Assembly: GCA_951813565.1 (NCBI GenBank)
Contig: OX638351.1
Span: 3,424,001 to 3,488,000, forward strand
Direction of reading: 5' to 3'
Origin: an uncultured Poribacteria bacterium
GTDB taxonomy: Bacteria; Poribacteria; WGA-4E; WGA-3G
DNA length: 64,000 bases
The notes under the pieces were generated by a model. It searched no databases, was not told the DNA's origin, and worked only from the letters and a program-made list of their open reading frames with translations. This document shows positions 998-61,162 of this stretch, one piece after another (position 1 is the first letter of the stretch; every line of letters begins with the position of its first letter). The translations under genes and the position numbers were made by a program.

Positions 998-1861
998 TCA
1001 GCAGAGAAGATGGAGAAAAGTTATCACCTGTTTCGTACGTGGAATTCGCCGTGAATGTTCAAAAATCTTGTAGCTTACACTCTCCGACTTGCTTCCATTC
1101 GTTCGAGATTCTTTCGGTTTGCACCAGTAATTTAACGGCACTTCACCCGTTAACTCACCAACGCTTGTCCCGTTAGTAAACTGGGACGCTAATGCCTGCG
1201 GATGAAGCGGTTGTCCGCTAACCAGATAGCAATCCTTGTTCTCGCGAAACCCATCGGAATACGCGAAGTACCGAATGACACCTGCCTCAGAAAACACAAT
1301 CGCACAAACAAATCTGGATAACCTTGTATAATGAATCCCTGTGCTTGTTAAAGACGTGCCGTACTGTGCAGCAAGCGCAGCAATCGCTGGTAATCCTACT
1401 TGTGAATGGGCAGATGAATCTGCCGAAAAGATAGGGGTAGGCATTAGCAATTCAGCAGCAAATTGATTTGCTCGCTGTTCACTCTTTAGATATGCTTGTT
1501 TCTTCGCCTGTGCTGTGTCTTCACCCTGTTCTGCAATCATGAAATTCAATCGTTCATCCATTGAACAAGAATCAACAGTATCGCGCTCTAACATGTAATG
1601 ACCGATTTCATGCGCAATAGTGAAATTTCGGCGAGACTCTGATCGGATACGCGCATTGACAAGAATACCCCACGCATTCTCGACTCGCATCAGGCAACCG
1701 TCACAAGTGTCGGGAAGTTCACGTTCCCAGATCACAATGCCGAGTTTTGTCGCGATTTGTCTTGGGTCTATCGGAAAATCTTGTATTTTAAAGTCGCGAA
1801 GGATGCCCCATGCCGCCGCAGCGGGACTGTCCTTCGCATATTGCAGCCGATTATTCAGCAT
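998..1861 (-). CDS. ImmA/IrrE family Zn metallopeptidase (DUF955), probably with a C-terminal GAF-like region
   Basis: RRNFTIAHEIGH (HExxH) and EQRANQFAAELLMP motifs. The ATG at 1861 overlaps the XRE stop, so it is preferred over the track start at 1924. Confidence 0.88.
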   Translation of the reverse strand: MLNNRLQYAKDSPAAAAWGILRDFKIQDFPIDPRQIATKLGIVIWERELPDTCDGCLMRVENAWGILVNARIRSESRRNFTIAHEIGHYMLERDTVDSCSMDERLNFMIAEQGEDTAQAKKQAYLKSEQRANQFAAELLMPTPIFSADSSAHSQVGLPAIAALAAQYGTSLTSTGIHYTRLSRFVCAIVFSEAGVIRYFAYSDGFRENKDCYLVSGQPLHPQALASQFTNGTSVGELTGEVPLNYWCKPKESRTNGSKSESVSYKIFEHSRRIPRTKQVITFLHLLC

Positions 1862-2219
1862 CAGCGGAACCTTCATTCGGTGTTTCTGTTTCCGCTTGTG
1901 TCTTGAGAAATTTATAGAATTCATAGAGCGTTTCTTTATCTTTCTCCGCGAATTCCATCATTCCCCTGAACATTACATTAACCCTCGGATCCGCCAATAA
2001 GTCTTCATAACCACGGTCCTTCTTACCAAGCAGGTAATCTGTTGTTACCTTCAAGGCATCAGACAAACTGGAAAGCGTATTAAAAGAGGGTTTTCGAGTT
2101 CCTGACTCAAATTGAGAAATAGCTGCAGGCGTCAAATTCGCTGCCTTTGCCAATTCAGTTTGCGTCATTTTAAGTTCACGTCGACGTTGTTTTATTCGTG
2201 AGATAACTTCTTCACTCAT
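1851..2219 (-). CDS. XRE/Cro-C1 HTH transcriptional regulator
   Basis: RIKQRRRELKMTQTELA...AISQFESGTRKPS...LKVTTDYLLG; AGGA RBS upstream. Confidence 0.93.
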   Translation of the reverse strand: MSEEVISRIKQRRRELKMTQTELAKAANLTPAAISQFESGTRKPSFNTLSSLSDALKVTTDYLLGKKDRGYEDLLADPRVNVMFRGMMEFAEKDKETLYEFYKFLKTQAETETPNEGSADAE

Positions 2220-2790: not shown

Positions 2791-2852
2791 TAAAAAAGAA
2801 TTTTATACAGAATTCTGTTCCAAACTTAAATTATAACGAGAAGTATCACGTA

Positions 2853-3011
2853 ACGTGAGTTTGATAAATAGTTAGGATTTCTACATTTCCTCTTAAAGTC
2901 CTCTGATAAGGGGGATTTAGGGGTTAAAAACACCAAAATAACGATTTTTTCAGCAAATATGCCCGTTCTCTGTTCAATTTTTGCCTGTCCAGTTAATTAT
3001 CAAACTCACGT
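2853..3011. mobile_element. MITE family A
   Basis: ACGTGAGTTTGATAA ... TTATCAAACTCACGT, flanked by a perfect 9-bp TATCACGTA (2844-2852, 3012-3020). Confidence 0.85.
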
Positions 3012-3068
3012 TATCACGTAGTAAATACGTTTTCTCTTTACTCCAAATTGAGGGTGATGTTATACATT

Positions 3069-3224
3069 GGGTGTGTAAATATTTGGTTACATAGATTCAA
3101 TTTGCAATGATTACGCGGCGTTTCCACTGTAGGGCGGGGTCCCGGGGAATGCCTTAAGGCATTCCCCGGAGACCCGCCCCTACAATAGGAGTTGTGCGGA
3201 TTTCTACAAAAACTTTACACACCC
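3069..3224. mobile_element. MITE family D (TIR GGGTGTGTAAA) with a 9-bp TSD; IS256-like ends by inference
   Basis: GGGTGTGTAAA ... TTTACACACCC, flanked by TTATACATT (3060-3068, 3225-3233). A longer copy lies at 22169-22635. Confidence 0.85.
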
Positions 3225-3240
3225 TTATACATTATTTATG

Positions 3241-3269
3241 TTGACAATAAATTCTAAATTTGGTACACT
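3241..3269 (+). promoter_or_regulatory. Sigma70-type promoter of the giant permease operon
   Basis: TTGACA-N17-TACACT with an extended TGn motif, 35 nt upstream of the ATG at 3305. Confidence 0.7.
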
Positions 3270-3304: not shown

Positions 3305-6300
3305 ATGAGAATTAAATATTATATCGTAATAAATTTACTTGTCTTTCTATGCTGTGTTTCGTTCGGTTATGCAGCAGAAGGCAAAAAAACGTTAGGGTTG
3401 TCGGAAGCTGCAATCCAAATACGAGATCAACTTTCTATCCGTAACATTAGAAAAGACCTTGCACGCTTATCAAGTCTTGAAAGCCGCGTTACAGGTTATC
3501 CGCAAGCAGCAAATGGAAGTAAATATATTTTTGACCGTTTCGTTGAAATGGGATTGAAGAATGTTGAAAGTCGTGAATTTACTGTCACAGTTCCTATTGA
3601 TTATGGTAATAGTGCTATTGACATCCTTTCTGCTGATGGTACGGTGCAACACACGTTCCCACTCAAACCGTTGTGGCCGAACCTTGTCCGAACATCCCTT
3701 CTTGCCGATGGTGTCAAACATACTGTTGAAGCAGGAGAAACCCTCGAAAAAATCGCAGAAAACTACGCTGTCCCGCTAACAACTATTGCAGAAAACCCAC
3801 ACAACCAATATTTACCTACACCTGTTGTGGAGGGGAACACGGTTTTCATACCAACTGGCGGTCTTACCGGGCCCTTATTTTACGGAGACGATGCCCAACT
3901 TGCAGATTTCAACGGAAGTAAAGTCGGCGGCTTTTGGTACAGGCTCCAAGAAGGTGATACACTGGCTTCACTAGCGAGACGTTATCGCGTTACGAAAGCG
4001 AGTATAACCGATGATGTTCTCAATGGACATCTGCAGAAAGCTTCCGATGGCATTGATAACAATGAAGATGGTACTGTGGATGAATATGGCGAAATTCCGC
4101 TGTTATCAGAGATTCTTGGATGGGCGACAGATGGCATTGACAACGATGCTGATGGTTGGACAGACGAAATTCCCGGCGATGCCACAGATGGTGTTGATAA
4201 TAACAAAGACGGCCGGATTGACGAGACAGGCGAATTCATCGCCGCAAGCGAATCCGATATCTTTATCCCCAAAGGCGCGATCGTTCTTGCCGAGTTTAAT
4301 TCGGGTACCCGATGGATCAACGCTGCCATGCTTGGTGCCTCCGCTGTTATTTTTATCGAACCAGAAACAACAATCCGAGGCGAAGCAGAAAACAAATTCC
4401 TCACTGTACCAGCCAACATTCCCCGATTTTGGATTTCTAATACAGATGCTGTTCAATTAAAAGATTTTCTTGCCACAGGTGAAGAGGTCAATGTTCGCTT
4501 GCGCGGTAAAATGAAATGGGAACGACGCGTCGGTCAAAACATTCGTGGCTTTTTAGAAGGTGGCGATCCTGTCCTACGCGATGAACTAGTCGTCGTTACC
4601 GCATATTACGATTCTATGTCAGTCGTACCGGCAATTGCCCCTGGTGCTGACCCAACTTGTGGGATTGCTGTCCTAATGGAGCTTGCACGTCTGTTCGGAC
4701 AACCGCAATACCGCCCTGGTCGTTCAGTACTATTTGTTGCTGTTGACGCGCATTTCCAAGGTTTAGCTGGCATGCGCGCATTTATGGAAGGTATTGGACA
4801 AGATATTGTCGGGTCAGCAACTGATTCCCCTGGAACCCCTACTTTGCAAGGGTTAAGAAGGGGTTTGTCAAATGATATTATCGAGTTTGAAGAATTAGGA
4901 CGCAAACTATTACTTTCCATTGATCGGAGTATTTTGGTTGACTTGGACGCGGATTTTTACCACGGCGTGCACGGGATAAAAGAAGACCTTGAATCGCTCT
5001 CCACAACGTTGACAGGACTCTCTACAACCCGTTCTCAAATTGATTGGTTACACAGAGCGCAACGAGATTTCTCAGAACGCCAGAAAAAACAGGTGGATCG
5101 CAACCGAAAACGCGAAAAACAGGGATTCACAGAGGAAGAAAAATCAAGACTCGAAGCGAATCTCGTTCGGTTTGAAAAAGAAGCATTGCAAACGACACAC
5201 TTCCTTCGCGAGATTGTTAACCGACTGGGACAGATTCGGACATCCGCCTTGAAAACGAGTAAGGATGCTCAACGAGAACTCATTGAAACTATCGCATTGC
5301 CTATTGCACGATTAGACACATGGGCAGTGGATAGGCTGATGCGCGAACTTGAATCAGGCGAGATAGATGACCGATACGACACGCATCCAAACGCATCATA
5401 CCTGTTACCGATGAAGGATGGAACCGATTATGAAGTGCCAACACCTGACGATCTACCACCAGAATTATTATCCGAAATTGAACAATTGAACAAGACTCTT
5501 GCCAATTGGGAGATGAGTGATCAGCGTAAATTTGCTTTGATGTGGACACCTGACAAAATACTTGACCGCCACTTAGATTTGCCGACTCTCAGAAAAGCGA
5601 GAGATGCACGAAAGACCCTTGCAAACACAACTGAATCTAAGGAAGATGCCATACCACGAGAGCGAGTACTTCTGGAAAAAATAAAGGAAAATCTCAAGGA
5701 CACCGCTACCATTGAAAATCAAATTAAAGAAGCTATTACGAAATTGAGCAGTGATCGTGAGCACGATCTTCCACCTGAAGTATTAACGCAATATCTAACT
5801 GAAGCATCACAAGAACGGATTAATAGAATTGATGATCAACTCCAGCAACGTTTGACCGAAGCAACTTCAGCATCTGTGGTAGGTGAAGCTGGAGATGGTT
5901 CATCTGAAAATATTCTAATTGAGGATTTGGCACGCGATAAGCAAGGCATTTTTGAAATTGCACTGCGGAATGCCCGTTTAGAACGGACGCGTATCCAGTA
6001 TCTCCTTGATTCCCATGAAACCCTCACACGTGAGTTTCTTGATGAGGAGTTGCTAATTCTGAAAAGTTATCTTTCAGGTGAGGAGGTTGCACAAGCAAAA
6101 GAGGCACGCAAACATATTGCCGCCTATCTGGTTGAAGCCGAAATCCTACAAGCAGTCAAACAGAACGCAGCTTCAGATGTGATCGCTCTTGAAAATCTAA
6201 TCAAGCAGCTCCCATCGCTAACAAGGGATATAGATGCACAAACGAAGGTGCTTCTTCGCGATAATATGCTCACGCTAAGGAATGCGCGATTCCGAAACAT

Positions 6301-9300
6301 TCAGAGCAGAGTTGAGAAGATGTCGCGCATAAGCGAGATAGAATATAATCGCAAACTCGCTCAGATTGAAGCCGCAGTTGCACTACAAGACCTATTCAAC
6401 CGATACTATACCTCTCTTTTCTGTAGCATTGACCTTTCCTCTCAATCGAATCAGTTCGGTGTATTTAACAAAGGATGGTTTTATGACCAACAACCGGAAT
6501 TTGTGTTACGGCGAGAGTTCGCGAGTATTGGCAATAAACTCGCTGCTTATGCAGCTGATGCTGATTTCGGTGTCCGCGTGAGGAAATTATGGCGAGCAAC
6601 AGACGATCAGATTCGTCAAGCGGTTATGGCGCGACAGTGGTCAGTGGCAAGTCAGATTTCTGATAAGGCAGACCTTGAAGGGAAAACGCTTGAGACTCTG
6701 CTTAGCGCACACTATGGTAAACTCACAGGTTTAGGCGGTGTTAGCCGACTCATGAAGATGCAGTTTGAGCAGTGGCGAAACCGAGGTGAACCGTCTGAAG
6801 ATATGCTTAAGGATATGGACTATATCCGCAAAGAGGTAGAACGGTTTATCCGAAACGATGTGCGCAGCGCAAAGAAAAACCGAAAAAACAGTATCCGCAT
6901 GCGTGAACAGTTAGACGCTATGCTAAGACTCCGGCACGAAGACCCCGACACATTTACTGAAGATGAGATAGAGGACATTAAAACATTAATCTCAATTGTA
7001 GGATTGGGCGGCGGTAGTAACTTTGTCAATGCAATTTCCGCGAGTGGTGGAAAAACGTGGAAAACCTATATCCCAGGGAAAATCGCCTTTGATAGTGAGG
7101 TCGCAACACTTGTTGGTAAAACAGGCATCGCCTTTGCAACGATTGAAGACGCGCGCGTCCTTACCGATACACCGCTTGATACGATTGATCGCGTTGATCT
7201 ACGTGAAGATGGCAATCTACATCAACAAGCAAAAACATTGGCATCTCTACTGATACAAGCGCTACGCGATCCACAGATGCCCACTGCAGCACGCGTTGGA
7301 AACTTTTATTGTAACCTTTTCGGTGATGTAGTTGAATTCGATGCCCGTGAATCTGCGTTGCCAAATAAACCTGTACCATATCCGATTGTAACGCTTCGCC
7401 GAAAACACAAAACTATGATGGGGGTACGCGGTGACTTATTCGCCATGGGCGATAATAAAGGTAATTTTGAAGTCGCTGGGTTGGCAATGGAAGGCAGAGC
7501 GACTCGCAGACTTGGTGGTGCGCAAGAAGTAGAGGCATATATCCTTGACTCCGATTCTGGGGATATTGTCTACGCTCCCGATTTAGGGAATTACGGTGCT
7601 AAACTGCTACCGAATAAAGTGCCGATCAACACACGGCGACGGGGATGTCGGGTTGTCACTTTCCCGTGTGTATCCACAACTATCTATGATTTAGTTGACC
7701 AGCGCTATCTCCGTACCTTACGCGAATTAGAGGTGTATGATGCGTTATCCGATAGCCCACCCGAAAAATTCGGCGTGTCTAAACCGTGGCAGCAGGAAGG
7801 TGTTTCTGCAGCTGAACCGATCGCGCTTGTCTATAGCGAACCGCAAAGCCGTATAAAAATTGGGATGGCGTACGGACAAATCGGTAAACGTCTACTTCTT
7901 ATTAAAGCGACCAAAAGCGGTATGAAAAATCCAACGCTTTACACTGGCGAAGGGTTTGTAGTCCGTGAAAACGGCAGTATCCGTCTCACGCCTTATGTTG
8001 TTGTACGCGATATGTGGTGGCTTGATGAGAATCGGTCTCGCCTTTACAAACGGTTCGGTATATCCAGTGATCGGCTTGATAAGTTGCATCAATTTGCCAA
8101 TGAATATCTCTCACGAGCAGAAACTGCACTTTTCCAAAACGACTACCAGCAGGCGCTGAAGTTGGCACGTGCTGCATGGGGATACGAATCACGCGCCTAT
8201 CCGGATGTAAAAAGAACTGGGAACGATGTCGTTAACGGCATTATGTTCTACCTTGCGCTCTTGATGCCGTTTGCCTACTTTATGGAACGGCTTATATTCG
8301 GTTTCCCAAACATTCACAAACAGATTTTAGCCACTTTTGGCATTTTCCTCCTTGTCTTTTACTTCTTAAGTCAGGTGCATCCAGCGTTCCAGATAACAAC
8401 AACGCCCATAATTATCTTAATTGCCTTCATTGTTCTTGCGTTGACTGTGCTTGTCATCAGCATTATCGTTAGGAAATTTGAGGAACAACTTGAAAAGATA
8501 CGTCAGCAGGGCAATAAGGTGTATAAAGCCGATGTCGGTAGGTTGAGCGCAAGTGCTGCAGCATTTAGCCTCGGTATCTCCAATATGCGGAAACGCAAAG
8601 GACGAACTATTCTTACGTGCGCCACATTGGTTATTCTCACGTTTACTGTCATCTCGTTTACATCGGTGCGGACGTTTATGCGTCCTAACCGAACCAGTTT
8701 GCCACAAGTTACACCGCGTTATACAGGCTTACTCATTCGCGATCAGTATTGGCGTCCTCTTGAAGAACCTATCCTTAACTCAATTCTAAACGATATGCAG
8801 AAGACGCAAATTACTGTAAATGATTTAGAACGACTTCTGGAACAGAAAAATCTAATTCTTGCAAAGCAAGGGCAAACGCCACTGGATATACCTGCAGCAA
8901 TTGCAGGATTGCAGGAAAGTGGGTTTATCAAAAATGTTGACGAAGAACCGATTCTCGCTGTTCAAAATGTTGTCGCGCCACGCGCATGGTACCAGTCCTC
9001 TGGAACAGGGGATCAATCTTTTGTACAACTGACGCGAAGCCCGAACACACAAGACACTGCACCACCGACACGCCCGCTCACAGGTGAACCGTTGAGCTTC
9101 GCCGCAAACATGCTTGTTGGCATGAGTGAGTCGGAACCCGCAGTCACTGGTATTGATCGCTATCTCCAATATGGAAAATGGTTTAATCGTGATGATGCTG
9201 ACAATTGGCCAACCGAGTGGCCCTACGCAATCGTTCTTCCGAAAGGGATGGCAGATCTTTTGAAACTAACCGAAAGTGATATGGGGAAAGCGACAATCTC

Positions 9301-10588
9301 TGTTTATGGTGCTGATTTTACCGTTGTCGGTGTTTTGGGGATAGGATTCAAGGATTTGACTGATAACGATGGCGAAGAAATGACACCTGTAGATTACCAA
9401 TTGATGCAGCAGCAACAGAGTAGAGGTGGCACAGGCGATGAAACGCTTGAGGGGGAACTTCAAAAATATCTCCATCTCACCCCAGATAGCATTGCAGTTT
9501 TGCCTTATGAAGTTGTCATGAACCAAGGCGGAACACTTAGAAGCGTTGCAGTCAACATGGAACCTCAAGAGAACGATCCGAAACTATTAGGTGCAATTGA
9601 TAAACTTGATCTTATCATGGCACCGCTGATGAACCGCATTGCGCTTGACTTTTTTGTTGGACGCGACAAAGATACCTATCTTTATAGCAGTATTGGTATG
9701 ACCAGTTTTAGCGGCATGGGCAACCTATTTGTGCCAATTCTGATTGCTGCGTTGATTGTTCTAAATACCATGCTCGGTGCAGTTTATGAGCGCGTCCGCG
9801 AAATAAGCATTTACAGTTCTGTTGGACTCGCGCCTATCCATATCGCTTTCCTCTTCCTTGCCGAAGCGTGTGTATATGCGATTGTTGGCGCTGTTTTAGG
9901 GTATCTAATGGGACAGGTGATCGCAACAACATTGGTGCATTTCGGTTGGCTCGCGGGCTTAACGCTAAACTATTCTTCAATGTCTACAGTCGTGGCGACA
10001 GTTATTGTGATGATTGTGGTGCTGCTCAGTACGCTTTACCCTGCTATAAAAGCATCCCGCATGGCAGTGCCAGATATTGAACGAAAATGGAAGTTGCCTG
10101 AACCTGAAGGCGATATATGGCATTTCAATCTACCGTTTACCGTTTTAGCGGAAGAAGCACTTGGCTTGAACGTCTTTATGCGCGATTATTTTGATGCACA
10201 TGCCGATGAGTCTGCCAGCGATTTCTATACAGACAACGTTACTTTCAGTTCTGCTGAAGAGGATTCTTATGAGATTGGGATGATGGTCTGGTTAGCGCCT
10301 TACGATTTAGGTGTAAGTCAATCTATCCAATTTATCACTTCGCCTGTCGGTGGAGAAGAAGAAGACCTTTTCAAAATCACATTAGATGTGCACCGCGAAA
10401 GTGGTGAGATAGCGTCATGGAAACGTGTCAATCGTCGTTTCCTCAATTTGTTGCGAAAACAGTTGCTGATATGGCGAACCTTCAGCGTTGATATCCGCTC
10501 AGAATTCCATGAACGGGGTAGAACCGAAAGCACTGATACGCCAGAGGGTACCGGGCAATTGGATCCCGTCGTGGCACCGGCGGATTAG
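3305..10588 (+). CDS. 2427-aa multidomain envelope protein: signal peptide, 2x LysM, DGIDN acidic repeats, PA-like region, split degenerate M28-peptidase-like domain, TM bundle and MacB/FtsX-type ABC permease
   Basis: LysM-like HTVEAGETLEKIAENY and YRLQEGDTLASLARRY; DGIDNxxDG repeats; M28-like AYYDS..PGAD..GIAVLMELAR..VLFVAVDAH; SNMRKRKGRTILT (MacB-type TM1); NTMLGAVYERVREISIYSSVGLAP..IAFLFLAEA (FtsX). Confidence 0.85.
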   Translation: MRIKYYIVINLLVFLCCVSFGYAAEGKKTLGLSEAAIQIRDQLSIRNIRKDLARLSSLESRVTGYPQAANGSKYIFDRFVEMGLKNVESREFTVTVPIDYGNSAIDILSADGTVQHTFPLKPLWPNLVRTSLLADGVKHTVEAGETLEKIAENYAVPLTTIAENPHNQYLPTPVVEGNTVFIPTGGLTGPLFYGDDAQLADFNGSKVGGFWYRLQEGDTLASLARRYRVTKASITDDVLNGHLQKASDGIDNNEDGTVDEYGEIPLLSEILGWATDGIDNDADGWTDEIPGDATDGVDNNKDGRIDETGEFIAASESDIFIPKGAIVLAEFNSGTRWINAAMLGASAVIFIEPETTIRGEAENKFLTVPANIPRFWISNTDAVQLKDFLATGEEVNVRLRGKMKWERRVGQNIRGFLEGGDPVLRDELVVVTAYYDSMSVVPAIAPGADPTCGIAVLMELARLFGQPQYRPGRSVLFVAVDAHFQGLAGMRAFMEGIGQDIVGSATDSPGTPTLQGLRRGLSNDIIEFEELGRKLLLSIDRSILVDLDADFYHGVHGIKEDLESLSTTLTGLSTTRSQIDWLHRAQRDFSERQKKQVDRNRKREKQGFTEEEKSRLEANLVRFEKEALQTTHFLREIVNRLGQIRTSALKTSKDAQRELIETIALPIARLDTWAVDRLMRELESGEIDDRYDTHPNASYLLPMKDGTDYEVPTPDDLPPELLSEIEQLNKTLANWEMSDQRKFALMWTPDKILDRHLDLPTLRKARDARKTLANTTESKEDAIPRERVLLEKIKENLKDTATIENQIKEAITKLSSDREHDLPPEVLTQYLTEASQERINRIDDQLQQRLTEATSASVVGEAGDGSSENILIEDLARDKQGIFEIALRNARLERTRIQYLLDSHETLTREFLDEELLILKSYLSGEEVAQAKEARKHIAAYLVEAEILQAVKQNAASDVIALENLIKQLPSLTRDIDAQTKVLLRDNMLTLRNARFRNIQSRVEKMSRISEIEYNRKLAQIEAAVALQDLFNRYYTSLFCSIDLSSQSNQFGVFNKGWFYDQQPEFVLRREFASIGNKLAAYAADADFGVRVRKLWRATDDQIRQAVMARQWSVASQISDKADLEGKTLETLLSAHYGKLTGLGGVSRLMKMQFEQWRNRGEPSEDMLKDMDYIRKEVERFIRNDVRSAKKNRKNSIRMREQLDAMLRLRHEDPDTFTEDEIEDIKTLISIVGLGGGSNFVNAISASGGKTWKTYIPGKIAFDSEVATLVGKTGIAFATIEDARVLTDTPLDTIDRVDLREDGNLHQQAKTLASLLIQALRDPQMPTAARVGNFYCNLFGDVVEFDARESALPNKPVPYPIVTLRRKHKTMMGVRGDLFAMGDNKGNFEVAGLAMEGRATRRLGGAQEVEAYILDSDSGDIVYAPDLGNYGAKLLPNKVPINTRRRGCRVVTFPCVSTTIYDLVDQRYLRTLRELEVYDALSDSPPEKFGVSKPWQQEGVSAAEPIALVYSEPQSRIKIGMAYGQIGKRLLLIKATKSGMKNPTLYTGEGFVVRENGSIRLTPYVVVRDMWWLDENRSRLYKRFGISSDRLDKLHQFANEYLSRAETALFQNDYQQALKLARAAWGYESRAYPDVKRTGNDVVNGIMFYLALLMPFAYFMERLIFGFPNIHKQILATFGIFLLVFYFLSQVHPAFQITTTPIIILIAFIVLALTVLVISIIVRKFEEQLEKIRQQGNKVYKADVGRLSASAAAFSLGISNMRKRKGRTILTCATLVILTFTVISFTSVRTFMRPNRTSLPQVTPRYTGLLIRDQYWRPLEEPILNSILNDMQKTQITVNDLERLLEQKNLILAKQGQTPLDIPAAIAGLQESGFIKNVDEEPILAVQNVVAPRAWYQSSGTGDQSFVQLTRSPNTQDTAPPTRPLTGEPLSFAANMLVGMSESEPAVTGIDRYLQYGKWFNRDDADNWPTEWPYAIVLPKGMADLLKLTESDMGKATISVYGADFTVVGVLGIGFKDLTDNDGEEMTPVDYQLMQQQQSRGGTGDETLEGELQKYLHLTPDSIAVLPYEVVMNQGGTLRSVAVNMEPQENDPKLLGAIDKLDLIMAPLMNRIALDFFVGRDKDTYLYSSIGMTSFSGMGNLFVPILIAALIVLNTMLGAVYERVREISIYSSVGLAPIHIAFLFLAEACVYAIVGAVLGYLMGQVIATTLVHFGWLAGLTLNYSSMSTVVATVIVMIVVLLSTLYPAIKASRMAVPDIERKWKLPEPEGDIWHFNLPFTVLAEEALGLNVFMRDYFDAHADESASDFYTDNVTFSSAEEDSYEIGMMVWLAPYDLGVSQSIQFITSPVGGEEEDLFKITLDVHRESGEIASWKRVNRRFLNLLRKQLLIWRTFSVDIRSEFHERGRTESTDTPEGTGQLDPVVAPAD

Positions 10589-10617
10589 ATAAATCAGAAT
10601 CTGACTGAACAAGGAAA

Positions 10618-10815
10618 ATGTATATGGAAAAATTAGCAAGCGTTATTATTATCATTGGGACTGTTCTATGGTTTATTAGCGTTCTGTTTTTGGGAGGGCG
10701 TTGGCAGTGGCAAATGTTGGCAGCACTTATATTAACTATCGGCATCTTCCTCGCTCATTTTTGGGAAGAACTCAGCGAAGAAAAGAATAAGAATACACCG
10801 AAAGATGATAATTGA
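10618..10815 (+). CDS. Small two-TM membrane protein
   Basis: Two hydrophobic segments, an AAGGA RBS, and a position within the operon. Confidence 0.6.
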   Translation: MYMEKLASVIIIIGTVLWFISVLFLGGRWQWQMLAALILTIGIFLAHFWEELSEEKNKNTPKDDN

Positions 10816-10903
10816 AGACTCTTGGAGTATAAAGCAGCACGTTAGAAATCGGGGTTAGAAACCCCTCCTACAAGAGCGTTTGGAAAAAAAGGAGAATATT
10901 TAA

Positions 10904-12892
10904 TTGGCGCGAGAGAGAATCTCACAAGCAGATGAATGGCAAACGTGGGCACAACGCTACGACATAGAAGGCGGCATCCGAACCTTTGAATCTGGATTGA
11001 CGGGCAAAGTGTTCTTCGGTGCACTTTTTGTCGGTTTGCTCATGATGCCCGGCTCCATCTATCTGAGTTATGTATCTGGTCAATCAGGTGCAGCGGCTGC
11101 CCCTTGGGTAGCAGTTATCTTGTTCACCGAATTAGCCAGACGTTCCTTCACCACGGCACGTCGTCAAGAACTCTATATGCTGCTAAGCCTCACTGGTGCA
11201 GCAGTCGGCAGCGGTATGCAATATCGGAGTTTTATTTGGTATGCATATTTTATAAACACACCGCAAGCCATTTCTTATGAAATTGCCGACAAAATACCCG
11301 CATGGGTTGTGCCAGCAGGTGATTCCTTAGCCATTGCGAGCCGAAGTCTGCTACATCCTGACTGGTTGTTGCCTATAGGTATCTACCTCGCGGGGAAGTT
11401 TCTTGGGACTCTGCGGGTTGTCAGTGGTCAGTATATTCTCTTTAGACTTACTGCTGACCTTGAACGGCTTCCCTATCCGATGGCACCGATTACAGCACAA
11501 GGTGCAACTGCGTTAGCTGAAACAACTGGTAAACAAGAAACATGGCGATGGCAAGTCTTTTCTATCGGGTCTATGGCAGGCTTAATATGGGGATTCATCT
11601 ACATCGGCGTTCCTGCTCTCACTGGCGTGATGATGAGCCAACCGATACAAATTTTGAAGATACCGTGGATAGATTTTACGCAAAGTATTGAAGGATTCGC
11701 GCCGACAGGGGTCTTTGCGCTTCGAACCGACTTCGGACAGATGCTCTTCGGATTCGTCTTGCCGTTTCCAGTGGTGATGTCGGAGTTTGTTACCGCGATG
11801 CTTTCGCAATTTGTTGTCAATCCACAAATTCTCTACAGAAACGAGATATTACATCAATGGGAACCTGGACTTGATGTGCGCGCGACTGGGCTCTTCAACG
11901 ATCTCGATTTCTGGAGGAGTTACGGCATAGGTAAAACGTTTAGCCTCGGTCTTGTTGGCATGGCTGCCTCTGTCCCAATGCTTTTCAAACTTCGCAGTAC
12001 CCAGAAAAAGGCGGGAGAACGTGGGTCACTTGCCACACCACCGAACCGTGGTGATTTTCCATTATGGCTTATGGGAACACTATGGTTGATCGGTATGGGT
12101 GGATTTGTCTGGCTCATCCATTGGATGGTACCGAATTTCCCACTGAGTTTCCTACTTGGATTCGCGTTCTTATATACGCCAATTAATTCATATATCACCG
12201 CAAGGACGTTCGGCGTGCTCGGCCGTGATCTATTTGAAATACCTTATTTGCATGAGATCACTTTTATTCTCAGCCGGTACGAGGAGATTGATATCTGGTT
12301 TGCCCCGCTACCTGACGAAGATTACGGAGCAGGCACACAAGGATGGCGCGTGCTTGAACTTACCGGAACAACTTTTACATCAAACCTTGCTGCCACGCTT
12401 CTGATTATGCCTATCCTGATTGTTAGTGGAATTGTGGTACAGCACTTTATCTGGCAAATAGCACCAATACCGAGCGCACAATATCCATTTGTTCAGATGA
12501 TGTGGCCGATTAACGCAACAAACGAATGTCTCATGAAAACATCACTGCGCGATGGGAATAGTGAGATAATACAAGCCATTCGAGGTGATTATGTTGCGGC
12601 AGGATTTACCTCCAGTCTCGCGATCTATGGACTGCTTTGGGTGTTAAAATATCCGTCAATGTGGTTTTACGGTATTATTGGTGGAATTGGTGCTGATCCG
12701 GGCAGTATGGTTGCGCGGTTACTCGGGGCCATCATCGGTAGATTCTATATGATTAAGCGGTTCGGTTTGAAGCGGTGGTTTATGTTCAATCCGGTACTGG
12801 CAGCAGGCTTTGCTTGTGGTGTGGGACTGATCGGGATGGGTACCGTTGCCATTGCCCTTGTCTCTAAAGCGGTCATTGTTAAGCCGTTTTAG
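10904..12892 (+). CDS. Polytopic membrane protein, OPT/YSL-like putative peptide transporter
   Basis: Many TM segments, an ERLPYPMAPI motif resembling the OPT 'LxFP' motif, and an AAAGGAG RBS before a TTG start. Confidence 0.65.
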   Translation: MARERISQADEWQTWAQRYDIEGGIRTFESGLTGKVFFGALFVGLLMMPGSIYLSYVSGQSGAAAAPWVAVILFTELARRSFTTARRQELYMLLSLTGAAVGSGMQYRSFIWYAYFINTPQAISYEIADKIPAWVVPAGDSLAIASRSLLHPDWLLPIGIYLAGKFLGTLRVVSGQYILFRLTADLERLPYPMAPITAQGATALAETTGKQETWRWQVFSIGSMAGLIWGFIYIGVPALTGVMMSQPIQILKIPWIDFTQSIEGFAPTGVFALRTDFGQMLFGFVLPFPVVMSEFVTAMLSQFVVNPQILYRNEILHQWEPGLDVRATGLFNDLDFWRSYGIGKTFSLGLVGMAASVPMLFKLRSTQKKAGERGSLATPPNRGDFPLWLMGTLWLIGMGGFVWLIHWMVPNFPLSFLLGFAFLYTPINSYITARTFGVLGRDLFEIPYLHEITFILSRYEEIDIWFAPLPDEDYGAGTQGWRVLELTGTTFTSNLAATLLIMPILIVSGIVVQHFIWQIAPIPSAQYPFVQMMWPINATNECLMKTSLRDGNSEIIQAIRGDYVAAGFTSSLAIYGLLWVLKYPSMWFYGIIGGIGADPGSMVARLLGAIIGRFYMIKRFGLKRWFMFNPVLAAGFACGVGLIGMGTVAIALVSKAVIVKPF

Positions 12893-12921
12893 CCAAAATT
12901 CTCTCGTGGTGGAAAATCGGT

Positions 12922-13869
12922 ATGGACTGGACTCTTTTTGGTTGGGCAGGCATTCAGTTAGAGATACCGACAACTTGGGAAATCAGTGGTATCAGCGGCG
13001 ATGAGAAGAACGGTTACCTTCGGTTAGATGACGCTGAGATGCCTCGGTTAGAACTCAAATGGGCAAAGACACGGAAAAAGAAACCTGACCTACACAAAAC
13101 ACTCGACGAATACTTCAAGTTAGTCCGTAAAAACTACAAACGCGGTGGTAATGTCTCATTTCGTAGGAACGTTGACCTTATTAAAGACGAGGATTTTTTA
13201 AAAGGTCACACTGTCCTTGGTTTTAGTTGGAAGGGAGGTATCCGCGCAAATGGATTGATCATCCATAGTCCCGATACTAAACGGATCACCATTGTCCAAG
13301 TCATGGGACGGCTCAAAGAAAACTGGCGTCCTACGGTACTACGCATCTTTCAATCTATTTCGGACCAAGGAGACCCGAAAAACACCGTCTGGAGTGCGTA
13401 TGGACTGAGGCTTGCTGTTCCGAAAAACTATAAGTTAGAAAGCCAGAAACTTCTCAGCGGATATCTATTGTTTGCATTTACAAGAGGTAAAAGTCGTAAA
13501 CTTAGTATTGAACGCTACGGTCCTGCGGAGGTGTTATTAAACGAATTTAGTTCAGAACCGAATCCTTTAGAGACTTGGTTTCGGGCGCGCTACGCTAAAG
13601 CGATTCGTGGTTATGGGTTTGAAGTGACACCACATGAAGAGCACGGAGACGAACGCATCACGTTTGTCGGACAGCAGACACGACTTTACGATAGTATGCC
13701 ATTTTCACCCTTACTAGTACTTGATAAACTCCGAAAACGGGTAAGACTTACGTTTTTTATTTGGCATTGTTATCATACCAACCGTATCTATGTGGTGCAA
13801 TCAATTGGACGCCATGAGACCTCTGAGAAACTTGCACAAGAGGTCGCAAAAAGTATTCACTGCCACTAA
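12922..13869 (+). CDS. Hypothetical soluble protein with an apparent two-fold internal repeat
   Basis: Long ORF in the operon; FGWAGIQLEIPTTWEI resembles WSAYGLRLAVPKNYKL. Confidence 0.7.
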   Translation: MDWTLFGWAGIQLEIPTTWEISGISGDEKNGYLRLDDAEMPRLELKWAKTRKKKPDLHKTLDEYFKLVRKNYKRGGNVSFRRNVDLIKDEDFLKGHTVLGFSWKGGIRANGLIIHSPDTKRITIVQVMGRLKENWRPTVLRIFQSISDQGDPKNTVWSAYGLRLAVPKNYKLESQKLLSGYLLFAFTRGKSRKLSIERYGPAEVLLNEFSSEPNPLETWFRARYAKAIRGYGFEVTPHEEHGDERITFVGQQTRLYDSMPFSPLLVLDKLRKRVRLTFFIWHCYHTNRIYVVQSIGRHETSEKLAQEVAKSIHCH

Positions 13870-14041
13870 GATTGAGATAGTGAATATTCAATAATAGTCA
13901 GAACAACATCAATTGACCCTTAAGGGTATATGAAAAAAGAAACAGAGATACTCAATTTTTTTGACATTCCGGTTGAACACTTTCCCGATAGAAGTGTCAG
14001 ATGGTTGTTCCAAGACAAGGAGAATGTCCGAGGGTTGTTAG

Positions 14042-15403
14042 CACTCCCCGTCAAACCCCCTGCCTTTAGGTAGGGGATGTCCACGGCGAAAGTTTTGATT
14101 TAAAATATACTTTTCAATCTAATCACAATGTGGTATAATATATCATACTATAGTGTAACTCTTGAAGTGATAAAAGACTATATTGAAGGTCAAAGTGGTC
14201 AATGAGAAAATCTCACAAGTTCAAACTTCAACACCAATCTAACACAATCAAACTTGGTAATATGCTTGATGATATGTGGGAAATCCATCTACATATCATG
14301 CGTTTGGCACGTAGGTATTATCGCATGTTCGGCAAAAATTTGTCTGCGTATCGTCTGAAGGCACACGTCACAAAACTTAAAAAGACAACTAAACCGCATT
14401 GGGCAGCCTTGCCGAGCCAAGTTGTGCAAGACATTGTGCTGCATGGTAAATCTCAAGACGCTTTCTTTGAGAATATCGAAGACCGAAAAGCGGGCAAAAC
14501 AACGCGTAAAGTGGATAGACCGAAAATCAAACCGCGCCACAAATACAACGCCATGACCTTCACACAAGCAGGCTACAAACTTGAAGGGAACCGTATCAAA
14601 ATCAACTGTATAGATACATGGTTTTCCTTTCACAAACACCGTGAAATCAAAGGTGTCATCAAGACGATAACGATCAAACGTGACAGGTGCGGTGACTATT
14701 GGATATGCTTTTCGTGTGAGAATGTTGACGATTCCGAACCCAAACCCAAGAGGGGTAAGAGCGCAGGATTTGATTATGGAAACAAAACATTCCTCACAAG
14801 CGACGAAGGGGACACAATAGAATCCCCGCAGTTTTTCAAACAATCACTCAACACGTTGCGATCTCTCAACAAAGCACTCAGTCGTAAAGTCAAAGGTTCT
14901 AACAACTATTATCGTGCGTGCCGTGCTTTGGCAAGGCAACACAGAAAGGTTGCCCGACAAAGAGAAGATTGGCAATGGAAACTTGCCTCAAAACTTTGTG
15001 TAGAGTTTGACACACTCATTTTTGAAACGCTGAACCTTGACGGTATGAAACGATTATGGGGACGTAAAGTTTCTGACCATTCTTTCTACCAGTTTCTTCA
15101 GATATTGGAACAGAAGTGTGCCAAACACGGCAAAAAACTTGTGCAAATCTCTCAATGGATAGCAACAACAAAACCTTGTAGTGATTGTGGATACCCTAAC
15201 AAAGAACTCTCTCTTTCTGATAGGCAGTGGACATGCCCCAAATGTGGCTCACACCACGACAGAGACATCAATGCTGCTATCAATATCAAACAGGCAGGCT
15301 TGGCTGCCTAAAGTGGAGCGACAATAAGACGGTGGACGCTAAGCGAAAACCGCAGTCGCAAGGAAGCACAAGCCCCTACCTTTAGGTAGTGGGTACCTAT
15401 GAC
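14042..15403 (+). mobile_element. IS200/IS605-family element, tnpB-only (IS1341-like), inserted 3' of TTAG
   Basis: Subterminal hairpins CCCCTGCCTTTAGGTAGGGG and CCCCTACCTTTAGGTAGTGGG, right end TGAC, no TSD. The ends are defined by comparison with the second copy at 45843-47207. Confidence 0.92.
14202..15311 (+). CDS. tnpB: RNA-guided endonuclease TnpB
   Basis: RuvC motifs GFDYG, FETLN and DRDINAA; Zn ribbon CSDC...CPKC. Confidence 0.95.
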   Translation: MRKSHKFKLQHQSNTIKLGNMLDDMWEIHLHIMRLARRYYRMFGKNLSAYRLKAHVTKLKKTTKPHWAALPSQVVQDIVLHGKSQDAFFENIEDRKAGKTTRKVDRPKIKPRHKYNAMTFTQAGYKLEGNRIKINCIDTWFSFHKHREIKGVIKTITIKRDRCGDYWICFSCENVDDSEPKPKRGKSAGFDYGNKTFLTSDEGDTIESPQFFKQSLNTLRSLNKALSRKVKGSNNYYRACRALARQHRKVARQREDWQWKLASKLCVEFDTLIFETLNLDGMKRLWGRKVSDHSFYQFLQILEQKCAKHGKKLVQISQWIATTKPCSDCGYPNKELSLSDRQWTCPKCGSHHDRDINAAINIKQAGLAA

Positions 15404-16104
15404 AAATTCTCTCAAGTGAGTTGGTGGAATTGATTGATTTTAGCCAACTTACACAAATTAACAGGAGTTTTATTCCAAACACGCTTCGCGAACAAGAGTC
15501 TGACATCGTTTTTAGCGTCCCTTTTCAACACGAATCGAAAACTAACGAGATACTTATCTATATTCTCATTGAACACCAATCAACAGTTGATGTTACAATG
15601 GGATTTCGATTGTTGTTTTACATGACGCAGATATGGGATTTTCAACGTAGGGAGTGGGAATCGAACAATGTTTCCAAAAGTGAGCGGCGTTTTCGCCCAA
15701 TCCTTCCGATTGTGTATTACACTGGCGCGCAGCAGTGGAAAACACCGTTGACTCTTGAGGCGATAATGGACATTCCTGATGTGCTTGCTCGCTTTGTCCC
15801 AAAATTTGATTCTTTGTTTCTAAGCGTAAAAGAAACAGATGAAGTGGATCTAACGAAAACTGGTCATCCATTGGGATGGTTGTTAACTGTACTTCAAAAG
15901 GAACATGCAGACAAGGAAGCGATAAGTAGTGCGTTGCTTGAAGCTATATCTCACATTAACGCTCTTGATGAAGAACAAGCACAGCAGCGACGGAGAGCAA
16001 TTATCTATTTCTTGTTGTTGATATTGCATCGTCGTCCGGCTAAAGAACACGAAGATTTGATAGCACTTATTGACCAACATACACACGAGTTGGAGGTAGA
16101 AACC

Positions 16105-16338
16105 ATGGCAAAATCAATGGCAGACGTTCTCAGAGAACAAGGTATTGAACAAGGCCAAACACGGGCAAAACAGGAGGCAGTACTTAAGCTCCTACAAATT
16201 CAATTTGGTGATGTGCCTGAGGATGTTTCTAAAAGAATTACTTCTATCCGTAGTATCTCAAGTCTTGATTCGCTCTTTGAGAAAACGGCTACCGTTCAAA
16301 CACTTGATGAAATTGATTGGCAAAACTATAATGACTAA
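16105..16338 (+). CDS. Putative intragenic small Rpn product (RpnS-like, 77 aa)
   Basis: GGAGG at 16092-16096, 8 nt before an in-frame ATG that starts MAKSMADVLREQGIEQG. Confidence 0.55.
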   Translation: MAKSMADVLREQGIEQGQTRAKQEAVLKLLQIQFGDVPEDVSKRITSIRSISSLDSLFEKTATVQTLDEIDWQNYND

Positions 16339-16382
16339 TACCATATTAACCTAAAACTTGTTCATACGCTACAAAAAAAGAC

Positions 16383-16847
16383 ATGCTTAACAAAGTTCTA
16401 TATACCCTTAAACTAAAAAAACGACCTGATGTAGATAGAGGCAAAGTCCTCAAAGCATTTCCGCTACGCAATCAGTTGATAACGTGGGAATTAGACGAAA
16501 AAGGTGAAGCCTCGCTCATCATTCCGCAGAAAGATAAATTCTGGGTTAGACTTACAAGTAAACTTTTTATGCTCCCCAATAAACGGGTTGTTGTGCTGGA
16601 TAGCATCGGTACATACGTATGGGAAATGTGTGATGGGAAGCATACTATTTCACAGATTATCAAGGCACTCCAGAAAAAACATCAACTGACCCGAAAAGAA
16701 GCCGAAACTTCACTTTTTACCTTTGTCCAACAGCTCGGAAAACGAAATTTTATCCAATTTGCTATTCCGAGTGAAGAAAAACCGAATGAGGCAGCAGCAC
16801 AAAAACCCGCGCAACAGAAGCGTTTCGGATTTTTGGCAAAGCGATAA
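16383..16847 (+). CDS. PqqD-family / RiPP-recognition-element-like protein
   Basis: VLDSIGTYVWEMCDGKHTISQIIKALQ...FVQQLGKRNFI is a typical PqqD winged-helix pattern. Confidence 0.8.
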   Translation: MLNKVLYTLKLKKRPDVDRGKVLKAFPLRNQLITWELDEKGEASLIIPQKDKFWVRLTSKLFMLPNKRVVVLDSIGTYVWEMCDGKHTISQIIKALQKKHQLTRKEAETSLFTFVQQLGKRNFIQFAIPSEEKPNEAAAQKPAQQKRFGFLAKR

Positions 16848-16993
16848 ACGATCTATTTATAACCTATTTATAACTTGTTTAACAAGTTCAGGATTTTTTA
16901 GTCAAGAAATCGCGACCAAGAGGTCGCTCCTACAGCGGAGACGCGATAGCCGATAACTGACTGCCGATAGCCAATAAAAAGGAGAAAAAAGAT

Positions 16994-17800
16994 ATGCAAG
17001 CAGAAATAGAGGGTGTACAACCAAATCTCGCTGAAACCCCAGAACGATTCCAGCGCCTTATTCCTAAAGAGAATACTGTTAGAGTCAGAAACCTCATAAA
17101 ACGTTATGAGATGGGAACAACGACTGTGGATGCGCTACGCGGTGTCAATTTCCAAATTCAACGCGGTGAATACATCTCTATTATGGGACCTTCTGGTTCT
17201 GGCAAATCTACGCTTTTTAATATGATTGGTGGATTAGACAAACCTACCGAAGGCAGAGTCTATATTGACGAAGTAGATATTGCACAGCTTGACGCTTACG
17301 AGTTGGCGTGGCTGCGTTGTCGGAAAATCGGTTATATTTTCCAATCGTTCAATCTAATTCCTGTTATGACAGCACTTGAGAATGTCTCGCTCCCCATGAT
17401 TTTTGCTGGTATGAGTGCCGATGAAAGCAGAGAAAAAGGCGTAGACCTGCTTTCTCTTGTTGGGTTGGGCGACCGCGTTCAACATAAACCGCTTGAACTC
17501 TCTGGTGGACAGCAGCAACGTGTCGCAATTGCCCGTTCCCTTGCTAACGACCCCGCTATTGTGTTAGCAGATGAACCGACAGGTAACTTAGATACCAAAA
17601 CAGGTCTTGAAATCATAGATTTGCTCCGCCGCCTCAATGATGAAAACGGCGTAACCATTATTACTGCAACACACGACCATAAGATGCTTGATGTCTCTGA
17701 CAGGATTTTCCATATGGTAGACGGCAAAGTTGACAAAATTGAGGCGCGCGATGAAATTGACCTTCACGTCGGAAAATTGGACGGTCAGGAAGTCGGATAA
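16994..17800 (+). CDS. ABC transporter ATP-binding protein (LolD/MacB/FtsE type)
   Basis: Walker A GPSGSGKST, LSGGQQQRVAIAR, LADEPTGNLD and H-loop ATHD. Confidence 0.95.
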   Translation: MQAEIEGVQPNLAETPERFQRLIPKENTVRVRNLIKRYEMGTTTVDALRGVNFQIQRGEYISIMGPSGSGKSTLFNMIGGLDKPTEGRVYIDEVDIAQLDAYELAWLRCRKIGYIFQSFNLIPVMTALENVSLPMIFAGMSADESREKGVDLLSLVGLGDRVQHKPLELSGGQQQRVAIARSLANDPAIVLADEPTGNLDTKTGLEIIDLLRRLNDENGVTIITATHDHKMLDVSDRIFHMVDGKVDKIEARDEIDLHVGKLDGQEVG

Positions 17801-17808
17801 ACTCCTCA

Positions 17809-18927
17809 ATGTCAATCTACAAACGTTTAGGTATCCGGACGGTTATTAACGGCAATGCAACTCTGACACGTCTTGGTGGTTCCATTATGCCGCCTGAAGT
17901 TATTGCAGCGATGGCTGATGCATCAAAACATTTTGTAGACATCATTGAACTTCAAAAACGTGTCGGCGAAGAAATAGCGAAACTTACCCATAACGAAGCA
18001 GCCTATGTCTCCAATGGTGCTGCAGCTGCCCTGACGCTTAGCACTGCCGCCTGTATCACTGGACTTGATGCTGCTAAACGTGCCAAATTACCCCATCTTG
18101 ACAACTCAATGAAAAGTGAAGTCATCGTGCATCGTCATGGACGTGTCGGTTACGATTTTGCCGTGCGGCAGGTCGGTGTCACATTAGTGGAAATAGGAGA
18201 CGAAAACGGCACAACACCTGACGAACTTGAAAACGCCATCACCGACAAGACCGCTGCAATCTTCTACTTTGCAAACCCCGGTAGAGAACATCTTTGGGTG
18301 TCATACCAAAAAGGCATTGAAATTGCCAAAAAGCACGGTATCCCTTTGATTGTTGACGCTGCTGCACAGTTGCCTCCGCCAGAAAACTTGTGGCGTTTTA
18401 CAGAGATGGGAGCAGATTTAGCGATGTTTAGCGGTGGAAAAGGGTTATGTGGTCCGCAAAGTAGTGGACTAATCGTTGGCAAAAAATCGCTGATTGAGGC
18501 TATCGCATTCAATGGTCCGCCCCATCCTTTCATCGGCAGAGGTATGAAGGTCGGCAAAGAAGAGATGGTCGGATTATTGGCAGCAGTTGAGTGGTACCTG
18601 AATCAAAACCACGACCAATTAATGCAGTCCTATGAAGAACAAGTCGCTTACTATACTGAGGTGTTTAAGGATATCCAAGGCGTTAGTGTGTATCGCAGTT
18701 TCCCTTCTGAAGCAGGGCAACCGATGCCCCGCACCGAAATCCGATTTGACGCAGAACAACTCGGTATCACGCGCAATGAAATTCTTCATCAACTACAGAT
18801 AGGTGAACCTGCGATAGATATTGCTGGTGCAGGTGCGAACGGCGTACTTATCAATGGGCAAACCTTGATGCCGGGAGAAGTAGAAATTATTGCTAAAAGA
18901 TTAAAGGAAATTCTACTTGAGTTGTAG
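17809..18927 (+). CDS. SelA-like / DgaE-family PLP-dependent enzyme
   Basis: VINGNATLTRLGGS, VDAAA, FSGGKGLCGPQSSG (PLP lysine) and IGRGMKVGKE. Confidence 0.85.
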   Translation: MSIYKRLGIRTVINGNATLTRLGGSIMPPEVIAAMADASKHFVDIIELQKRVGEEIAKLTHNEAAYVSNGAAAALTLSTAACITGLDAAKRAKLPHLDNSMKSEVIVHRHGRVGYDFAVRQVGVTLVEIGDENGTTPDELENAITDKTAAIFYFANPGREHLWVSYQKGIEIAKKHGIPLIVDAAAQLPPPENLWRFTEMGADLAMFSGGKGLCGPQSSGLIVGKKSLIEAIAFNGPPHPFIGRGMKVGKEEMVGLLAAVEWYLNQNHDQLMQSYEEQVAYYTEVFKDIQGVSVYRSFPSEAGQPMPRTEIRFDAEQLGITRNEILHQLQIGEPAIDIAGAGANGVLINGQTLMPGEVEIIAKRLKEILLEL

Positions 18928-58982: not shown

Positions 58983-59038
58983 TTTTCTCCTTTTCCTGTT
59001 TCTCTTATTTCTGGTGCGTTTCAAGAAACCGTGGACAG

Positions 59039-61131: not shown

Positions 61132-61162
61132 CCGAAAACCCTTGTATAGTCGAATACCATCA

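Follow-up and report, generated by a model that had tools for sequence, protein, structure and literature searches.

A widespread, apparently undescribed gene system in which a type VII ABC permease co-occurs with OPT-fold membrane proteins

Introduction

Six co-oriented genes in a stretch of DNA from an uncultured Poribacteria bacterium (contig OX638351.1, positions 3,424,001 to 3,488,000; 64,000 nucleotides, the whole of which we call the window) encode a giant permease of 2427 aa, a small membrane protein, a 662-aa polytopic protein, a 315-aa soluble protein, a PqqD-like protein and an ATP-binding cassette (ABC) ATPase (Table 1). Do these genes form one system, and what could such a system do? 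The sequence-only reading of the window had proposed an ATP-gated, wall-tethered peptide machine coupled to an importer.

Our analysis shows that the six genes are real and conserved. They bring together a type VII ABC permease, an OPT-fold protein, a PqqD-like protein and an ATPase, a combination so far undescribed. Three further components lie outside the window: a mini-FtsX permease, a second ATPase and the DUF6785 family. The giant, mini-FtsX, core OPT-fold (662-aa) and DUF6785 families are inherited together as a unit and have system-linked ATPases next to them, and the components very probably form one functional unit. The system is widespread and apparently undescribed. A literature search, with subscription papers mostly outside its coverage, found no description of it and none of DUF6785/DUF6784, in agreement with the earlier statement that no characterised system has this combination; the available part of a Thermofilum paper (PMC6965361) likewise contains nothing on these families.

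Conservation and co-inheritance

The closest homologues of the locus are labelled Poribacteria, and the 662-aa gene is found in 119 of 121 genomes of that phylum. A GTDB scan for this gene gave at least 595 confirmed stretches and returned 77 loci. Conserved synteny, which had been named as a check on the proposed system, was borne out in the 29 most distant of them (L050-L078), where the giant lies directly upstream of the 662-aa gene in 20, one locus is cut and the giant is absent from eight; between phyla the order of the genes changes, but the set of members is kept.

Co-occurrence was scored as the presence or absence of profile matches in 463 genomes of at least 85% completeness sampled from four other phyla. 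The core OPT-fold and DUF6785 families were both present in 182 of these and both absent from 279, with two genomes discordant. By phylum (each named here by one member genome), core and DUF6785 matches were found in 33 of 201 genomes each for G121 (32 shared), in all 32 for G124, and in the same 20 of 109 for G125 and the same 98 of 121 for G122. In the G125 phylum, the giant and mini-FtsX mark those same 20 genomes.

Copy numbers differ between core and DUF6785. This genome carries one giant, one core OPT-fold gene and 17 DUF6785 genes, and G122 has one core gene and 46 DUF6785 matches (in the large scans such numbers are minima, as some of these scored no more than 7 to 11 candidates per genome). 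Most lineages have about one core copy per genome, with DUF6785 ranging from a single gene in the operon to dozens scattered elsewhere. A single-copy DUF6785 gene is usually part of the operon: in six of the seven single-match genomes of the G125 phylum, it lies there or within 13 kb of the core gene. In 19 of 33 Planctomycetota-phylum (G121) genomes, a DUF6785 gene is found within 13 kb of the core gene. Giant, core OPT-fold, DUF6785, mini-FtsX, 315-aa homologue, PqqD and ATPase genes all stand together in L092, L096 and L101, which serve as examples only, having been among 20 loci hand-picked for DUF6785 linkage.

The giant permease

Pfam assigned to the giant two LysM stretches (best at 139-163, E 9e-8), an M28 domain (412-495, E 1e-8), a weak PA domain (E 0.011), an FtsX domain (2143-2253, E 1e-11) and, under its cut-off, MacB_PCD (1935-2038, E 1e-3). 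Together with hydropathy, these matches outline a four-helix FtsX unit with a periplasmic core between the first and second transmembrane helices (TM1 and TM2), and the giant profile also matches MacB, LolC and YtrF. The head has a PA/M28 fold (profile match to 2ek8, E 4e-21). DNA contigs from two public runs, one of them possibly the source sample, span the giant gene with no indel listed.

Alignment of the giant with 23 homologues (24 sequences, 15 of them non-Poribacteria) revealed a family core of about 1500 residues, most helical inserts being confined to Poribacteria. Two attributes of the proposed peptide machine were not upheld. The LysM inserts behind the term "wall-tethered" are both missing from all 15 non-Poribacteria giants. 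As for peptide processing, the head has lost three of five M28 zinc ligands and the catalytic (general-base) glutamate: Tyr434 replaces the first His, His483-Phe484 the Glu-Glu pair and Asp1288 the last His (where the alignment is weak), and none of the 24 giants has the canonical residue at any of four sites (both zinc His, one zinc Glu and the general-base Glu). The M28 ligands Asp449 and Asp1043 are retained, and His483 and Asp1043 are invariant across the 24 sequences. Since LysM is restricted to Poribacteria and the zinc site is lost, neither wall tethering nor canonical proteolysis defines the giant family. Residues 246-310 (window about 4040-4235) form acidic DGIDN-type repeats seen in Poribacteria only and possibly calcium-binding.

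The OPT-fold proteins

The 662-aa protein had been called an OPT-like transporter, a description that holds for its fold and fails at the level of Pfam. Its model (mean predicted local distance difference test, pLDDT, 82.5) has the core and scaffold of the OPT/YSL fold and resembles barley YS1 (Foldseek E 1e-8; Z 20.6, root-mean-square deviation (rmsd) 4.6, 552 residues aligned) far more closely than the next match (Z 5.9), with 12-16% sequence identity. The protein itself has no Pfam match at E<=0.1, the OPT model PF03169 included, and a sequence search against the PDB returned none; PF03169 matches a minority of its homologues (6 of 120 among the matches listed, and 15-33% of Atlas cluster members).

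The 17 DUF6785 genes of this genome are 26-49% identical to one another and scattered, none clustering with the core genes. Core OPT-fold and DUF6785 proteins are full-length homologues (552 columns, HHalign 85.8%, E 5e-6, with a DUF6785 alignment of 23 rows); hhalign of the core protein against the 17 DUF6785 sequences was not significant (E 0.98 global, E 0.17 local). Despite this homology, the two profiles match different genes. A weak search for longer, fused forms of the core protein and of one DUF6785 found none. Complex modelling of giant residues 2138-2410 and 1640-1728 with core residues 28-662 scored 0.00 twice with controls likewise unfolded, and so is evidence neither way.

The core gene is tandemly duplicated in one Poribacteria genus (g9; L035, L037-L040), and in Planctomycetota-phylum loci L092, L093 and L100-L104 some DUF6785, core or mini permease proteins carry inserted domains of 100-400 residues, one of them FGE-sulfatase-like. 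Prepilin-type (N-methyl, often DUF1559) genes stand directly 3' of the core gene in L052, L054, L057, L067, L071 and L076, and directly 5' of DUF6785 in L136, L137, L147, L182 and L208; their products may be binding partners there. As an obligate part of the system, DUF1559 pilin-like genes were rejected, a motif search having found 0 prepilin-like N-termini in this genome.

Soluble proteins, mini-FtsX and ATPases

The 315-aa protein (model pLDDT 86.7) consists of two Mog1p/PsbP domains. PsbP is its best fold match, with alignments to 2xb3 (Z 14.9, rmsd 2.8, 138 aligned) and, for the second half, to 5zxa (Z 11.4, rmsd 3.7, 133 aligned). The PqqD-like gene encodes, as had been suggested, a protein with a Pfam PqqD match above cut-off (E 1e-11). 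It falls under the NCBIfam cut-off of every family specific to ribosomally synthesized and post-translationally modified peptides (RiPPs). The window likewise proved to hold no RiPP maturase: a scan of 41 window proteins, covering the locus and, outside it, open reading frames (ORFs) of at least 110 aa, found no radical SAM or other maturase family, and a motif search gave no CxxxCxxC.

The window ATPase is closest to LolD, YbbA and MacB models, as anticipated, though under their cut-offs, and has Walker A, Q-loop, LSGGQ and H-switch intact. A second ATPase, 62% identical to it, lies with the mini-FtsX permease (225 aa, without a periplasmic domain) at G000:C1:242907-244498. The two group with the ATPases of giant-linked loci in a single clade (98/97), in a tree where several outgroup branches are long, and each of four giant-linked Planctomycetota loci of that clade has two ATPases. 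Mini-FtsX was found in all five distant Poribacteria genomes tested, and its orthologues adjoin the giant or an ATPase in L053, L054, L067, L071 and L076. An apparent 966-aa ATPase fusion in L103 was rejected as an over-long ORF in another frame.

What the system may do

A single core that is accompanied by one linked DUF6785 gene or by many scattered ones parallels the split between group I and group II energy-coupling factor (ECF) transporters, and we therefore favour a shared motor with exchangeable DUF6785 proteins. According to the available text of PMC7755397, one ATP module joins different substrate subunits in group II and a single dedicated subunit in group I. That a shared core serves exchangeable DUF6785 proteins is likely. 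Our best explanation adds that the motor is of type VII and that its constant partner, the core OPT-fold protein, pairs with the exchangeable DUF6785 proteins, so that the whole would operate like a group II ECF transporter made of other folds; we offer it tentatively, as slightly short of an even chance. ATP-powered import, taken by itself, is about as uncertain, and glycan cargo for some DUF6785 paralogues is a shade more doubtful.

We infer the following contacts, energy coupling, direction of transport and cargo. The giant and mini-FtsX would pair, to judge from their linkage and co-occurrence, as a permease heterodimer of the LolC/LolE kind powered by the two ATPases, and the core OPT-fold protein would be the motor's constant membrane partner. 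YS1 is described in the accessible part of PMC9691689 as a homodimer joined through its scaffold domains and working as a proton-coupled elevator; the core protein may pair, in the manner of YS1 subunits, with a single DUF6785 subunit at any given time, the DUF6785 subunit fixing specificity and the ATP stroke driving or gating its elevator movement. The dead peptidase head could serve for binding or docking outside the cytoplasm, with the PqqD-like and Mog1p/PsbP proteins as adaptors inside it, and the cargo would, for at least some paralogues, most likely be imported oligosaccharides. In its boldest form, which we consider distinctly doubtful, this would be a new class of primary-active importer in which a MacB/FtsX-type motor drives swapped OPT-fold elevator subunits. 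It would serve as a main route of oligosaccharide uptake in Poribacteria, Armatimonadota, parts of Planctomycetota and further phyla that degrade glycans and are mostly uncultured, and each DUF6785 paralogue would mark a different glycan.

Glycans enter this argument through gene neighbourhoods. The peptide cargo of the sequence-only reading rested on family names, and informative DUF6785 neighbours are more often glycan enzymes than peptidases. Examples involving glycoside hydrolases (GH) and polysaccharide lyases (PL) are LacI-DUF1559-DUF6785-GH66 (L136), LacI-DUF1559-DUF6785-GH32-GH32 (L137), DUF6785-GH43-GH43 (L139), PL11-GH106-DUF6785 (L178), GH76-GH2-DUF6785-GH125 (L185), DUF6785-GH43-AraA (arabinose isomerase; L193) and DUF6785-GH29 (L154); GH127 was also seen in a DUF6785 glycan-use operon, and no other transporter family was present among the scanned neighbours in L136 and L137. 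A GH/PL gene was adjacent and co-oriented in 11 of 46 DUF6785 loci versus 4 of 53 controls (p 0.028, by a post hoc criterion); control locus L208 was excluded for containing a DUF6785 gene, and the first 29 Armatimonadota-phylum loci were top-scoring matches, with no random draw. In this genome, 3 of the 17 DUF6785 genes adjoin a sulfatase. Overall, the link between DUF6785 and glycan enzymes is weak. In the available part of a study of Fervidibacter sacchari (PMC11535203), an OPT-annotated hypothetical protein, an FtsX-only permease and a PqqD protein were expressed on all eight polysaccharides, the OPT-annotated protein being flat at the protein level (p 0.79). These three may be the core of the present system, a match by annotation only, with DUF6785 unlabelled there.

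Several observations weigh against our preferred explanation. Characterised OPT proteins are self-sufficient proton symporters that need no motor (YS1; PMC9691689, available part), and an assembly or regulatory role would account just as well for co-inheritance. The members of a phylum are related to one another, and the co-occurrence counts, which carry no test statistic and are not tree-aware, therefore overstate independence. Of the 20 positive genomes of the G125 phylum, only 9 yielded the 315-aa family, which also turned up in one further genome. A profile search of G219 found no core OPT-fold gene (this genome has four giants, three adjoining DUF6785), and one of G131 found no DUF6785. 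Two Poribacteria genomes, G072 and G093 (95% and 96% complete), gave no giant, core or 315-aa gene; they carry 9 and 26 DUF6785 matches and retain mini-FtsX, a gap that one locus missing from the assembly could explain. As for glycan cargo, a GH/PL gene lay within two genes of DUF6785 in 11 of 40 loci versus 8 of 39 controls (p 0.6), six new loci judged by a criterion fixed beforehand gave 1 of 6 versus 1 of 14 (p 0.52), no GH lay within two genes of any of the 17 DUF6785 genes of this genome, and one paralogue follows an M60 peptidase gene (L233) and another an S41 peptidase gene (L222). Given the weak GH statistics and the zero count in this genome, most DUF6785 paralogues give no hint of cargo.

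Chief among the alternatives is a dedicated assembly or quality-control machine, in which the core would insert, fold, activate or recycle DUF6785 proteins that are themselves ordinary proton symporters. It predicts the same one-to-many dependence, with a head comparable to nicalin and nicastrin and the Mog1p/PsbP protein chaperoning membrane helices. The giant profile does match transferrin receptor (E 5e-9), nicalin (E 4e-8) and, weakly, nicastrin (E 0.12); in that profile search, however, the active PA-M28 aminopeptidase 2ek8 scores better (E 2e-22), so the likeness is one of fold. SciW and EagT6 chaperone membrane helices, and both share the fold of the 315-aa protein (Z 9.8 for SciW), although PsbP itself matches that protein best. 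Finally, an assembly machine leaves unexplained why a second, strongly conserved OPT-fold protein sits beside the giant. We consider this alternative unlikely.

The wall-tethered machine of the sequence-only reading, which would capture or process peptides and pass them to a peptide importer and a cytoplasmic RiPP recognition element (RRE), is a good deal less probable. In its favour, the locus has an M28/PA fold, LysM, an OPT fold and a PqqD domain, and the invariant His483 and Asp1043 could, judging by the alignment, bind a ligand. Classical prokaryotic OPT genes often stand beside peptidases (PMC3061005, available part), and the Fervidibacter authors, in the part of PMC11535203 available, interpret their OPT-annotated protein as peptide uptake. 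These points are offset by the restriction of LysM to Poribacteria, the loss of the canonical zinc site from every aligned giant, the lack of a Pfam OPT match in the 662-aa protein and the many glycosidase operons among DUF6785 neighbours.

Equally improbable, in our estimate, is a role in sensing or export, with DUF6785 proteins as receptors whose occupancy the motor reads, or with the complex extracting or exporting an envelope component. The known type VII systems act on the envelope side, in cell division, lipoprotein trafficking, efflux and lipid extraction (PMC12646458, available part), and near-universal presence in Poribacteria would suit a housekeeping function. Yet the annotated operon maps contain no recurring kinase, regulator or outer-membrane partner, and in L136 and L137 DUF6785 stands between a LacI gene and glycosidases as the sole transporter family among the neighbours scanned. 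That the ABC system and the secondary transporters are independent neighbours, merely co-inherited because kin share genes, is highly improbable: the core gene is apart from the giant in 8 of 29 distant loci, but four families occur in just the same 20 of 109 genomes, with mini-FtsX often on another contig, and the system keeps its members although their order varies between phyla.

Locus structure and surrounding genes

ORF positions agree with the six plus-strand genes first proposed, coordinates included. The single sigma70 promoter proposed upstream fared less well: the site in Table 1 is among the top-scoring ones, but the region holds 33 such sites versus 32.0 expected, and equal matches occur at 14111 and 16304. 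It was also correct that only rpn and its insertion sequence (IS) intervene, the gap between the 315-aa and 154-aa genes being rpn split by a TnpB-only element. That element has 27 matches over 900 bp genome-wide, the locus copy included, and both it and rpn are missing from most relatives of the locus. RNA runs X1 and X9 match the locus only on repeats and the IS/rpn stretch.

Table 1 Features of the locus and of the giant permease (positions in the window unless given as residues).
Feature	Position	Strand	Basis or remark
Promoter-like match TTGACA-17-TG-TACACT	3241..3269	+	sigma70-like consensus, 10/12
Giant permease, 2427 aa	3305..10588	+	Pfam, hydropathy, alignment, profile searches
Giant: N-terminal hydrophobic segment			
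Giant: PA/M28 pseudo-peptidase head	residues about 40-500 and 1030-1320		
Giant: Poribacteria-only inserts	residues 137-183 (LysM); 208-322 (LysM + acidic repeats); 505-1030 and 1088-1232 (helical)		
Giant: further extracytoplasmic domains, then extra 3-helix membrane unit	residues 1642-1720 (3-helix unit)		
Giant: FtsX/MacB unit	TM1 residues 1768-1786, periplasmic core, TM2-4 residues 2142-2244		
Giant: C-terminal domain			conserved
Small membrane protein, 65 aa	10618..10815	+	confined to Poribacteria-type loci
Core OPT/Yellow-Stripe-fold membrane protein, 662 aa, single copy	10904..12892	+	predicted fold, profiles
Soluble protein, 315 aa, tandem Mog1p/PsbP fold, no hydrophobic segment	12922..13869	+	predicted fold
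rpn (YhgA-like) gene, interrupted, outside the system	13930..16338	+	Pfam; most related loci without rpn
IS200/IS605-family TnpB-only element, 1362 bp, after TTAG	14042..15403	+	tnpB at 14202-15311
PqqD-like (RRE-fold) protein, 154 aa, single copy by its own profile	16383..16847	+	Pfam, NCBIfam
LolD/MacB-type ABC ATPase, 268 aa	16994..17800	+	NCBIfam, motifs, tree

Intergenic repeats resembling repetitive extragenic palindromes (REP) or miniature inverted-repeat transposable elements (MITE) lie at 2840-3240, 10816-10903 and 16848-16993, with 298, 145 and 39 BLAST matches in the genome, respectively. Eight bp after the ATPase gene begins a gene for a DgaE/SelA-like pyridoxal phosphate enzyme (17809-18927), followed by one for a metallo-beta-lactamase-fold hydrolase (19336-20046); both were rejected as parts of the system, as they adjoin the locus only in close Poribacteria relatives. 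Divergent from the locus is a pair encoding an HTH_3 regulator and an IrrE/ImmA-like M78 peptidase (998-2219, minus strand). A secreted LamG-like protein (21276-22043) ends in a short C-terminal KL..TWG-type motif; similar endings occur in 73 of 4571 called genes and are possibly a lineage-specific sorting signal. Further along, at least nine WD40-repeat genes (31194-55621, minus strand) come after an ECF-type sigma factor gene (30038-30967) and harbour a second TnpB element (45938-47047), and genes for NeuB, a cytidylyltransferase/HAD protein, an SDR protein and Gfo/Idh/MocA (58101-62155, minus strand) make up a nonulosonic-acid-type sugar cluster.

Comparison with known systems

The motor belongs to the type VII ABC group (LolCDE, MacB, FtsEX, YbbAP-TesA, YtrEF), with which it shares an FtsX unit with a MacB-like periplasmic core, a LolD/MacB-type ATPase and two unlike permeases, which may pair as LolC and LolE do. 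Unlike those systems, one permease here has a pseudo-peptidase head some 750 residues long, a further three membrane helices and a C-terminal domain, while its putative partner usually lacks a periplasmic domain; there are two ATPase paralogues and links to two OPT-fold families. The E. coli type VII systems have envelope roles (PMC12646458, available part).

OPT/YSL transporters share the whole-protein fold of the core protein, which differs from them in its low identity to barley YS1 and its lack of a Pfam OPT match. In YS1, two identical subunits form a proton symporter (PMC9691689, available part); in the present system, two distant families rely on one another as well as on an ABC module. 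Type VII systems being known for envelope action and OPT proteins as self-sufficient proton symporters, a motor of the first kind that serves a large family of the second would, if confirmed, represent a transport architecture of a new type. Should the assembly alternative be right, a bacterial machine dedicated to a single family of transporters would be new as well.

Like group II ECF transporters, the system has two ATPases and one core with many scattered subunits that depend on it, as far as the genomic pattern goes. It has no S-component or EcfT fold; its subunits are OPT-fold proteins of 630-700 aa and its motor is of the MacB/FtsX type. The likeness is in logic only, with subunit exchange here inferred from genomes; a shared motor, if confirmed, would mean that the ECF-like sharing of a module arose a second time, independently. 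The system also gives a lead to the function of DUF6785/DUF6784, of which sponge symbionts and other glycan degraders have tens of copies. It is testable, since transcriptomes and proteomes on several polysaccharides are publicly available for one cultured species of Armatimonadota.

The M28 pseudo-peptidases transferrin receptor, nicalin and nicastrin share with the giant a PA/M28 fold that lacks the canonical zinc site and sits on the outer side of a membrane protein, and differ in that the head here is fused to an ABC permease and has its own invariant His and Asp. The PqqD-like protein resembles PqqD/RRE proteins of RiPP pathways in its Pfam match, yet it stays below RiPP-specific cut-offs, has no maturase in the window and travels with a transport module. 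Apart from its motor, which is of the type VII ABC group, the system belongs fully to no known kind.

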